Positions 13,349 to 13,847 are shown, counted from the first letter of the stretch. The stretch is 16,143 nt of DNA from a virus (IMGVR_UViG_2660238511_000011); one strand, 5' to 3'. Notes: generated by a model from the letters alone, not told the origin. A program made the numbers and translations.

Positions 13349-13621
13349 AGGTTTCCCCCTGACGAATACGGGCGGCGAATACAGCAACACAACCGGACGG
13401 GCAACGGCTACGCGCTTCGCGTTCCGTCCAAGCGGTTACGTGGATGATTTGGGATTCTCCGGCACTCAGTGCCAGAAAACGCCACACAAAGGCCGTTTGT
13501 GTGTGTACAAGGTGTGGTATATGATTTACGGCAACCATAACGGCTCCTAGTTTACGTTGTTGGTTAGAAGCCCCGTTACTGCTCCTACAGTGCGGGGCTT
13601 TGCTTTTTGTGTTGATTGTGT

Positions 13622-13651
13622 GTAATGTGTCACTACACATAAATACATTAC
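13622..13651. promoter_or_regulatory. Nested dyad symmetries (ATGTGT-cact-ACACAT inside GTAATGT...ACATTAC); candidate operator
   Basis: Perfect 6-bp inverted repeat at 13625-13630 / 13635-13640 and a 7-bp inverted repeat at 13622-13628 / 13645-13651, located 17-46 nt upstream of the RHH gene start. Confidence 0.45.
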
Positions 13652-13667
13652 CTGAGGTGTAATTAAC

Positions 13668-13847
13668 GTGTCAACACACAAAAACGAAAGGCGTGGTAAT
13701 CCTCCGTTCCAGTTCCGTTTAGATCCTGACTTACGGGAAAAGATGGAAAAGGCACAACAACAGGACGGCGATGATTCTCTTGCTGCCTGGATAAAGCGAA
13801 TAATCCGCAAAGAATTACAGCAACGCGGCATAGAACCCAAAGGATAA
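13668..13847 (+). CDS. Arc/MetJ-type ribbon-helix-helix DNA-binding protein, 59 aa, GTG start
   Basis: GAGGTG ribosome-binding site 8 nt upstream of the GTG. Translation ...PPFQFRLDPDLREKMEKAQQQDGDDSLAAWIKRIIRKEL matches the Arc-like beta-strand plus two-helix pattern. Not in the ORF track (below 60 aa). Confidence 0.6.
   Translation: MSTHKNERRGNPPFQFRLDPDLREKMEKAQQQDGDDSLAAWIKRIIRKELQQRGIEPKG

Follow-up and report, generated by a model that had tools for sequence, protein, structure and literature searches.

A P4-like control region with a ribbon-helix-helix gene, class-specific dyads and a predicted antisense RNA in a Gram-negative phage-inducible island

The described control regions closest to the one considered here, a segment of the 16,143-nt viral stretch IMGVR_UViG_2660238511_000011 (the window, meaning that stretch at its full length), are those of satellite P4 and of phages P1, P7 and P22. 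The P4 immunity region is composed of PLL-vis-eta/kil, PLE, the CI RNA, seqA/seqC and the Rho-dependent terminator timm. In immI of P1 and P7 (c4 RNA - icd - ant), the translation of icd is targeted by an antisense-type RNA and gates the downstream genes. The immI region of P22 encodes the ribbon-helix-helix (RHH) repressors Arc and Mnt and has overlapping Pant and Pmnt promoters and the sar antisense RNA, which is about 70 nt long, convergent with the regulated promoter and laid over the ribosome-binding site (RBS) of the regulated gene. RHH repressors, antisense RNAs over an RBS and nested genes of the eta/kil type are, each taken singly, already known. Here we report a conserved module of the window, located between alpA and the replication genes, in which a 59-amino acid (aa) RHH protein gene, operator-like dyads, a predicted cis-antisense RNA and a long opposite-strand open reading frame (ORF) are combined. 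Judged by its layout, the region is a positional homolog of the P4 vis-eta/kil immunity region, without the CI and seqA RNAs.

The window is a satellite of the Gram-negative phage-inducible chromosomal island (PICI) or capsid-forming PICI (cf-PICI) type. In Staphylococcus aureus pathogenicity islands (SaPIs) and Gram-positive PICIs, the genes for the repressors Stl and Rpr, respectively, are divergent from the excision-replication operon (PMC6092414). For Gram-negative PICIs, experiments have shown AlpA to be the activator, and these islands have no known repressor (PMC6092414). Neither EcCICFT073 nor EcCIEDL933 is induced without AlpA, and in EcCICFT073 overexpressed AlpA is enough for induction (PMC6092414; 10.1101/2022.09.08.507074). 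The candidate repressor gene of the window is likewise divergent from the satellite operon. Stl and Rpr are, however, larger proteins that are inactivated by binding helper proteins, whereas the window encodes a 59-aa RHH protein without an obvious sensor domain, beside the gene of the activator AlpA.

The divergent arrangement had been recognized in an earlier note on this DNA, which placed about 320 bp of intergenic sequence between a leftward replication operon beginning at 13349 and the RHH gene. Both the length and the operon start need correction. Since the minus strand of this segment encodes an Icd-like protein of 66 aa with a good Shine-Dalgarno (SD) sequence (AGGAG, 13545-13549), the non-coding spacer is only 129 bp (13539-13667), and the operon begins at 13538 (Table 1). 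The leader ORF matched the NCBIfam model NF033153 (phage_ICD_like) at 1.6e-17, and P4 Kil matched the same model at 1.6e-21; pairwise BLAST between the window leader and P4 Kil was not significant. In E. coli relatives the leader is annotated as 'host cell division inhibitor Icd-like protein'. Its stop codon overlaps the ATG (13348) of the next ORF, and later genes of the operon overlap as well. The operon continues to a DUF4222 protein and a D5-type primase, and has no antirepressor (ant) as the regulated gene.

With P4 the region shares the order and strand of an AlpA/Vis homolog, a long control-region ORF, a Kil/Icd leader of about 65 aa and a primase operon. In P4 kil is nested in eta; in the window the long ORF abuts icd, and the two are fused in 24 of 67 relatives. 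P4 controls the start of leader translation at the RNA level, as we predict for the window. By contrast, P4 has the C4/CI and isrK/seqA RNAs, which Rfam did not detect in the window, and the RNA predicted for the window, unlike the P4 CI RNA, would be cis-encoded and antisense and have a promoter and an intrinsic terminator of its own. The window further differs from P4 in that its Eta-like ORF contains, on the other strand, a gene for a candidate protein repressor, and the two regions have no nucleotide similarity. To P1 and P7 the likeness lies in the Icd-family leader ORF; the c4 RNA is, however, a processed, trans-acting, same-strand RNA, whereas that predicted for the window would come from the opposite strand and has no Rfam C4 match. 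To P22 immI the likeness lies in a small RHH protein with operators, putative in the window, within opposed promoters and in an antisense RNA over an RBS, which for the window is a prediction. In P22 the regulated gene is the antirepressor gene ant and there are two RHH genes, whereas the window has the icd-replication operon and one RHH gene; the window also has an overlapping antisense ORF, unlike P22, and its RHH protein is without detectable membership of the Arc or Mnt Pfam families.

Rfam searches of the window at gathering and permissive thresholds found no C4/CI, isrK or other family, with none at E<=10 in 13100-14000, whereas the positive controls, P4 and the island of E. coli 2015C-3121 (L001), gave C4 (75-78 bits) and isrK (61-66 bits). 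The spacer was accordingly dropped as a candidate CI/c4 RNA locus of the P4/P1 type. The 2015C-3121 island carries a P4-like CI module (6385-6570, minus strand), which lies within an 'ash family' pseudogene and scores 77.6 bits for C4 and 66 bits for isrK, and also an RHH cassette with the antisense-RNA motif (6679-7003), and thus both immunity devices can coexist.

The rightward 59-aa RHH gene that the earlier note proposed is genuine. It has 117 homologs, mostly of exactly 59 aa, in Enterobacterales, Orbaceae, Pasteurellaceae and Aeromonadales; the start, the stop and a length of 56-60 aa are kept across bacterial families. The ratio of nonsynonymous to synonymous polymorphism (pN/pS) in its frame is 0.157, the lowest among all six frames. 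The product matched PHROG 228 'Arc-like repressor' (2.1e-6) and, weakly, the NCBIfam model YlcI_YnfO_N (NF041551; E 5e-4, 20 bits against a family cut-off of 30). No family was found in Pfam, the Arc and Mnt families included, no match among PDB sequences except a spurious one to NsrR, and only weak matches with Foldseek. YlcI/YnfO proteins (NF041551), known from lambdoid prophages and PICIs, take the RHH slot in the EcCICFT073 and Nissle islands, where the equivalent gene is annotated 'YlcI/YnfO family protein'; the helices of the window protein are of a different subfamily. A literature search found no function described for YlcI/YnfO, which, like HicB-like genes, appears there in lists of satellite accessory genes.

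Antisense to the RHH gene runs a long ORF of 248 codons (ORF248, here the Eta-like ORF), which ends with a TAG (13549-13547) in the icd SD; the icd ATG follows 8 nt further on. Homologs of this ORF number 1003, and many of them, named Icd-like or ash family, are long forms of 310-434 aa. Its product is Cys/Ser/Arg-rich and gave no hit in family searches, and pN/pS of the frame is 0.317. RefSeq annotates this minus-strand ORF and not the RHH gene in O157-type relatives. In L003, and in L002 at 3193-4053, the annotation is of a 247-286-aa 'hypothetical protein' antisense to an unannotated RHH ORF.

Codon-position entropy was unable to separate the RHH gene from ORF248, as the two share wobble positions, and pN/pS and stop-depletion tests were used instead. 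The latter were run against synonymous-codon nulls; some openness of the Eta-like frame is expected from the shared wobble positions, and the openness found exceeds it. Per RHH gene, 0.26 stops were observed in this frame compared to 0.87+-0.08 expected, and the frame was without a stop in 36 of 50 representatives (<85% identity), against 20.6 expected and a maximum of 32 in 1000 trials. The other four alternative frames matched their nulls, so that stop depletion was confined to the Eta-like frame. Codons ending in T before CAN, which would create an antisense TGA, made up 7-9% of cases compared to about 35% elsewhere. Among 67 unique regions the Eta-like frame reaches the icd start in 48; it is open past the icd ATG in 30 (in 24 of them in frame with icd, and thus fused) and stops 1-40 nt before the ATG in 18. 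In 130 of 134 cases, control frames were interrupted within the RHH gene.

These results bear on whether the RHH ORF might be a shadow of the 248-aa minus-strand gene, in which case the region would hold co-oriented coding only and no divergent repressor. PGAP calls the minus-strand ORF in the O157 and FORC_042 relatives, the ORF resembles the database proteins counted above, its frame is open beyond chance and its pN/pS is below 1. The RHH frame nevertheless has the lowest pN/pS and keeps its start, stop and length across families, and its product appears to resemble RHH proteins at the family and fold level, whereas the ORF248 product, rich in Cys, Ser and Arg, has no family hit and its frame is broken in 14 of 67 regions. 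In Xenorhabdus loci, moreover, the minus-strand ORF is almost wholly the antisense of RHH, promoters and hairpins. We consider a shadow origin of the RHH ORF very improbable. That both frames can be used belongs to the reading that we prefer, in which the RHH gene and the minus-strand ORF would each be in use.

The N-terminal segment of RHH proteins forms their DNA-reading strand. When 80 loci encoding RHH relatives from many genera were compared, the C-terminal helices (DGDxSLAAWIKRIIRKELQxRG) were found to be conserved, and the N-terminal segment fell into discrete classes, five or more in number. The segment reads RRGNPPFQFRLDP in class A, to which the window belongs (ERRGNPPFQFRLDP strand), KGNKQIALRVEP in class B, EKRSPQYQMRL in class C and KTDQYQIRL in class D. 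The fifth class (E), with QSPQFRMRISPEL, is encoded by an unannotated ORF with a TTG start in the O157 island of EcCIEDL933 type; in E. coli O157:H7 ATCC 35150 (L003) this RHH ORF lies at 3319-3510 on the plus strand and specifies 63 aa, and it is an antisense ORF of 247 aa that carries the annotation there.

Two overlapping inverted repeats had been noted just upstream of the RHH start, and both are exact. The outer dyad, GTAATGT-N16-ACATTAC, had zero expected occurrences in shuffles; its arms (13622-13628 and 13645-13651) coincide with two facing -10 hexamers. The inner dyad, ATGTGT-CACT-ACACAT, has an N4 spacer (13625-13640). Together they form the O1 region. A second, operator-like copy (O2), 41 bp from O1, differs from the O1 dyad by two mismatches and was also detected as direct repeat D1 (81%). 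Class-specific palindromes occupy the same position in the other loci: one is found at the O1 position in every RHH class, and in each class palindromes stand at two fixed places, O1 at about -43/-50 and O2 at about -5/-11, abutting or overlapping the RHH start. In classes C, D and E also the second copy abuts or overlaps the start codon. The palindromes are ATGTGT-N4-ACACAT in class A, CAAGTGT-N3-ACACTTG in some class B loci, ATGGTAATTACCAT in class C, GTTGTAATTACAAC in class D and AGGTGACCAC, in two copies, in class E; the CFT073 island (YlcI type) has two copies of AGGTGTGGCCCAC.

Because the N-terminal strand and the dyads change together, while the dyad positions and the helices remain fixed, a pairing of the protein with the dyads is supported, and this co-variation is the strongest in silico evidence that RHH binds them. 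RHH is thus very probably a DNA-binding regulator that recognizes the dyads. Of the earlier view of RHH as repressor of the region, candidacy is strengthened by this class-wise change, whereas the standing of a demonstrated master repressor is not upheld.

Three further repeats were noted at the operators. In many class A loci (for example L007, L008 and L012) positions -5 to +7 of the RHH start form a perfect palindrome, TTGAC-GT-GTCAA, centred on the GTG, that gives -35-like hexamers on both strands; the window copy, TTAACGTGTCAA, has one mismatch. An imperfect inverted repeat of 15-20 nt, CTTTGCTTTTTGTGTTGA (13598-13615) and TCAACACACAAAAACGAAAG (13671-13690), brackets the promoter-operator segment and could close the operator region as a stem on a long leftward transcript; its conservation among the remaining class A loci is not evident, and it was left out of the model. 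An RHH half-site near alpA (14775-14782) was rejected as chance-like (12 matches across the window compared to 11.6 expected), with no dyad there.

The dyads are interleaved with predicted promoters. A simple consensus scan scored none of the three proposed promoters above threshold, and the case for them comes from conservation. For the leftward promoter, P_L, the -35 overlaps the RHH start codon (GTG-TCA-A) and is a perfect TTGACA in the window. Among the loci of each class it is a perfect or near-perfect TTGACA over codons 1-3 of the RHH gene (ATG/GTG-TCA-A). In all four operator classes analysed, a minus-strand TTGnnn was present at +1 to +6 of the RHH ORF in 90-100% of loci and a minus-strand TAnnnT at -22/-23, 17-18 nt past TTGnnn, in 79-100%. 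These elements are conserved despite operator sequences that are unrelated between classes, which points to a leftward promoter under O1 and O2. The rightward promoter, P_R, is tentatively assigned to the RHH gene. Its -35 lies in the terminator tail described below, its -10 in the left outer dyad arm, and its match to consensus is weak. A plus-strand TTGnnn at -68/-70 and TAnnnT at -45/-47, 17 nt apart, were detected in about 80% of class A and C loci and not in class B loci. In this arrangement the -10 hexamers of P_L and P_R face each other across the inner dyad of O1, and O2 covers the -35 of P_L. One protein bound to O1 and O2 would, we infer, block both promoters.

A different role for the RHH protein, as an accessory factor that regulates itself and neighbouring plus-strand genes while the operon is driven solely by AlpA-dependent transcription from upstream, would agree with the need for AlpA in EcCICFT073 and EcCIEDL933 and with the sufficiency of AlpA overexpression in EcCICFT073, and with the location of the cassette in a 'dynamic zone' swapped between PICIs (PMC10111431). 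The leftward TTGACA and TAnnnT elements are nevertheless conserved in all classes analysed and are overlapped by O2 and O1, and the cassette is present in most relatives examined, both prototypes included. An accessory role is therefore unlikely in our judgment. The same promoter elements bear on a reading of RHH as the antitoxin (VapB-, ParD- or HicB-like) of a small toxin-antitoxin (TA) or addiction module, with dyads that serve autoregulation only. Against it, there is no conserved adjacent partner: homologs of the next plus-strand ORF in the window (ORF58) are restricted to Escherichia/Shigella islands, in Xenorhabdus a convergent alpA comes next at about 100 nt, and elsewhere alpA or unrelated DNA follows. 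Furthermore, the cassette stands at a fixed distance from the icd start and from the antisense-RNA terminator, and the conserved leftward promoter has its -35 over the RHH start codon in every class. An antitoxin role appears to us highly unlikely.

The hairpin with a U-rich tail that had been pointed out upstream of the dyads is likewise present, on the plus strand, and conserved in place: relative to the RHH start, about 72 of 81 loci have it at -101 to -67, whatever the operator class. We predict that it is the terminator of a cis-antisense RNA over the icd start. This RNA, of about 75-78 nt, would consist of stem-loop 1 (SL1), a single-stranded stretch, stem-loop 2 (SL2) and a U tract; its predicted fold, with two stem-loops, has -30.5 kcal/mol and a z of -4.5. 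Covariation was analysed in an alignment of 66 distinct sequences, with 500 shuffles and slid controls for comparison. The terminator helix (SL2) has 13 pairs, is 97% paired and shows compensatory change at 10 pairs, and all five measures were above every one of the 500 shuffles and all slid controls. In SL1 the inner helix shows 93% pairing and GC<->AU swaps, and the loop complements the icd SD.

About 100 G.U/U.G cells were counted on the plus strand versus 2 C.A cells, which would be G.U in a minus-strand RNA. This asymmetry and the U tract that follows the stem indicate, therefore, that the structure is selected in plus-strand RNA, as an intrinsic terminator. The putative promoter of the RNA lies within icd codons 5-14. 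A plus-strand TAnnnT hexamer stands before the icd start codon, at a distance of 8-13 nt, in the 66 aligned loci. Its final T never varies, the A is at least 90% conserved, and this A is the complement of the third position of varying codons (TCT, CAT, TGT, GAT, TTT). The hexamer is thus kept against codon degeneracy, which argues for selection on a -10 box at the nucleotide level.

It might instead be proposed that the hairpin acts in the leftward mRNA or as DNA, be it as a 5'-UTR stabilizer, an AlpA or RNase site or an insulator terminator, and that there is no antisense RNA. The hairpin does form in minus-strand RNA, its T tract also supplies the putative -35 of P_R, and the antisense promoter is weak by consensus. 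The G.U count opposes this, as do the T tract, which is 3' of the stem on the plus strand only, the TAnnnT conserved upstream at the right distance against codon degeneracy, and the second covarying stem-loop, which presents an anti-SD; the insulator version would moreover need plus-strand transcription from inside a 12-kb minus-strand gene block. We regard an action of the hairpin in the leftward mRNA or DNA as improbable, and an antisense RNA as the better account of the structure.

A covariance model (R1) built from the antisense-RNA alignment found exactly one copy per island in five islands outside the training alignment (E 2e-12 to 4e-9): EcCICFT073, the EcCIEDL933 type, Nissle, FORC_042 and 2015C-3121. 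Two of the five, L002 and L003, differ hardly at all from the window in this segment. A search of P4 with R1 gave no copy.

A terminator-like hairpin on the minus strand, CACACAAACGGCCTTTGTGTG followed by GCGTTTTCTG, was observed at 13483-13503, with a tail that reaches about 13473, within the coding sequence of the Icd-like protein, where it overlaps the -35 of the predicted antisense promoter. By analogy with timm inside P4 kil, it could be an attenuator that forms only without icd translation. The E. coli relatives fetched are nearly identical across this hairpin.

The genes, the dyads, the RNA structure and the constraint on the open frame are present and conserved. On these we base a model that infers binding, promoter activity, RNA expression and all regulatory consequences from P4 eta/kil, P1 c4-icd and P22 Arc/sar as analogues. 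In this interpretation, which we hold to be somewhat probable, the region would be an immunity and early-control region of the P4 type, with an RHH repressor and an antisense RNA in place of the CI RNA. In the silent state, RHH, transcribed rightward, would bind the class-specific dyads O1 and O2 and shut P_L of the icd-replication operon as well as its own promoter. A constitutive cis-antisense RNA of about 75 nt would start inside the first icd codons, end at the conserved terminator, pair with the leader SD and start codon and so block leader translation on transcripts that escape. Because the operon is tightly coupled, with the icd stop overlapping the next ATG and later genes overlapping, the leader block could turn the primase operon off through coupling and polarity. 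On induction, AlpA-driven transcripts from upstream would cross the cassette antisense and carry the Eta-like ORF; ribosomes on the Eta-like frame would protect the transcript, melt the structures, reach the icd start and override both blocks, and the converging transcription would silence the RHH gene. Late transcripts of P4 escape termination through the translation of eta (PMC10111431).

The earlier note read the region as the likely master switch of the island, with the RHH protein as a candidate repressor. Since AlpA is the known inducer and is encoded just upstream in the orientation of the operon, we would place RHH as one layer of a multi-layer, P4-like immunity region and not as a demonstrated master repressor. 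Several points weigh against the model. The 59-aa RHH protein has no obvious sensor domain for inactivation by a helper. AlpA overexpression alone induces EcCICFT073 (PMC6092414), and any repressor can therefore be overridden. Stops occur in the Eta-like frame in 14 of 67 regions, so that read-through translation is not universal, and the stop-depletion statistics correct incompletely for shared ancestry.

Gram-negative phage-inducible islands have long lacked a recognized repressor system, and the conserved module described here, flanked by alpA and the replication genes, may be that system. It is present in the prototype EcCICFT073 and in an EcCIEDL933-type island. A further-reaching proposal, which we put forward as speculative and rather doubtful, is that PICIs and cf-PICIs possess an overlooked immunity made of a swappable RHH cassette and an antisense RNA against the Icd/Kil leader, lying antisense inside a translated Eta-like ORF. 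Such a dual-coding switch, conceivable yet far from assured, would encode the repressor on one strand, and AlpA-driven read-through translation of a frame on the other would override repression, in EcCICFT073 and EcCIEDL933 among others. As far as the searchable literature shows, the combination of RHH protein, antisense RNA and nested ORF in this slot of Gram-negative PICIs is undescribed; a search for work on RHH proteins, small RNAs or antisense RNAs in PICIs found nothing specific. Were RHH and the antisense RNA to silence the replication operon, existing model islands would offer a concrete and testable immunity mechanism, incompatibility or immunity groups of co-resident satellites could be traced to the specificity classes, and engineered PICI 'drones' would gain a control handle. 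The segment would also be a rare case of selection keeping both strands open for translation.

Table 1. Coordinates of genes and predicted elements in and around the control region of the window.
Feature	Position	Strand	Details
Integrase	14914-16143	-	
alpA (activator/excisionase family)	14351-14539	-	Pfam Phage_AlpA 5e-18; upstream of leftward operon, same orientation
Eta-like long ORF (ORF248), 248 codons	13547-14293	-	starts 55 nt after alpA; antisense through ORF58, RHH, operators and hairpins
Stem-loop directly 3' of RHH stop codon	13857-13883	+	10-12 bp; terminator-like call, 12 pairs; poor T tail
RHH gene (Arc-like, related to YlcI/YnfO), 59 aa, class A	13668-13847	+	GTG start; SD GAGGTG 13654-13659
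O2, operator-like copy ACGTGT-CAAC-ACACAA	13666-13681		overlaps RHH start codon and P_L -35
P_L, predicted leftward promoter	13644-13673	-	-35 TTGACA 13673-13668; 18-nt spacer; -10 TAATGT 13649-13644; start near 13637
O1 region	13622-13651		inner dyad and outer arms, exact
P_R, tentative RHH promoter	13600-13628	+	-35 TTGCTT 13600-13605; 17-nt spacer; -10 TAATGT 13623-13628
SL2, predicted intrinsic terminator	13567-13601	+	U tract 13602-13609
SL1 of predicted antisense RNA	13533-13565	+	anti-SD CUCCU in loop; anti-start codon in stem
Predicted cis-antisense RNA	13532-13609	+	SL1, single-stranded UGGUUAGA, SL2 terminator, U tract
Predicted antisense-RNA promoter	13497-13525	+	-35 TTGTGT 13497-13502; 17-nt spacer; -10 TATGAT 13520-13525
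Icd/Kil-like leader gene, 66 aa	13338-13538	-	first gene of leftward replication operon; NF033153
D5-type primase	10629-12377	-	

The stem-loop between RHH and ORF58 is probably the 3' end or a stabilizer of the RHH mRNA. The same stem-loop follows the unrelated RHH-type genes of the O157 and CFT073 islands, with G.T wobble on the plus strand. The two conserved hairpins that flank the RHH cassette may mark module-exchange boundaries. Downstream, ORF58 (13905-14081, plus strand) is a Lys/Arg-rich ORF of 58 aa that matched phrog_21027 at 2.9e-12, and the N-terminal half of the Eta-like ORF overlaps it from the opposite strand, so that either strand may be the coding one there. ORF58 was rejected as an operon or TA partner of RHH, its homologs being confined to Escherichia/Shigella.

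Capsid and terminase genes lie on the minus strand, to the left of the primase gene. A Shigella flexneri island (L005) is nearly identical to the window, and related islands are found in >1200 complete E. coli genomes. The phage records searched by blastn with the window gave no match, and RHH homologs are nearly absent from phage records. Within the replication operon, two overlapping minus-strand ORFs of 73 aa (13127-13348) and 66 aa (12982-13182), together spanning 12982-13348, matched phrog_2512, a 154-aa family, over successive parts (1-76 and 63-126). At this place FORC_042 carries one gene of 154 aa, and the gene in the window looks frameshift-split, either as a pseudogene or by sequencing error.

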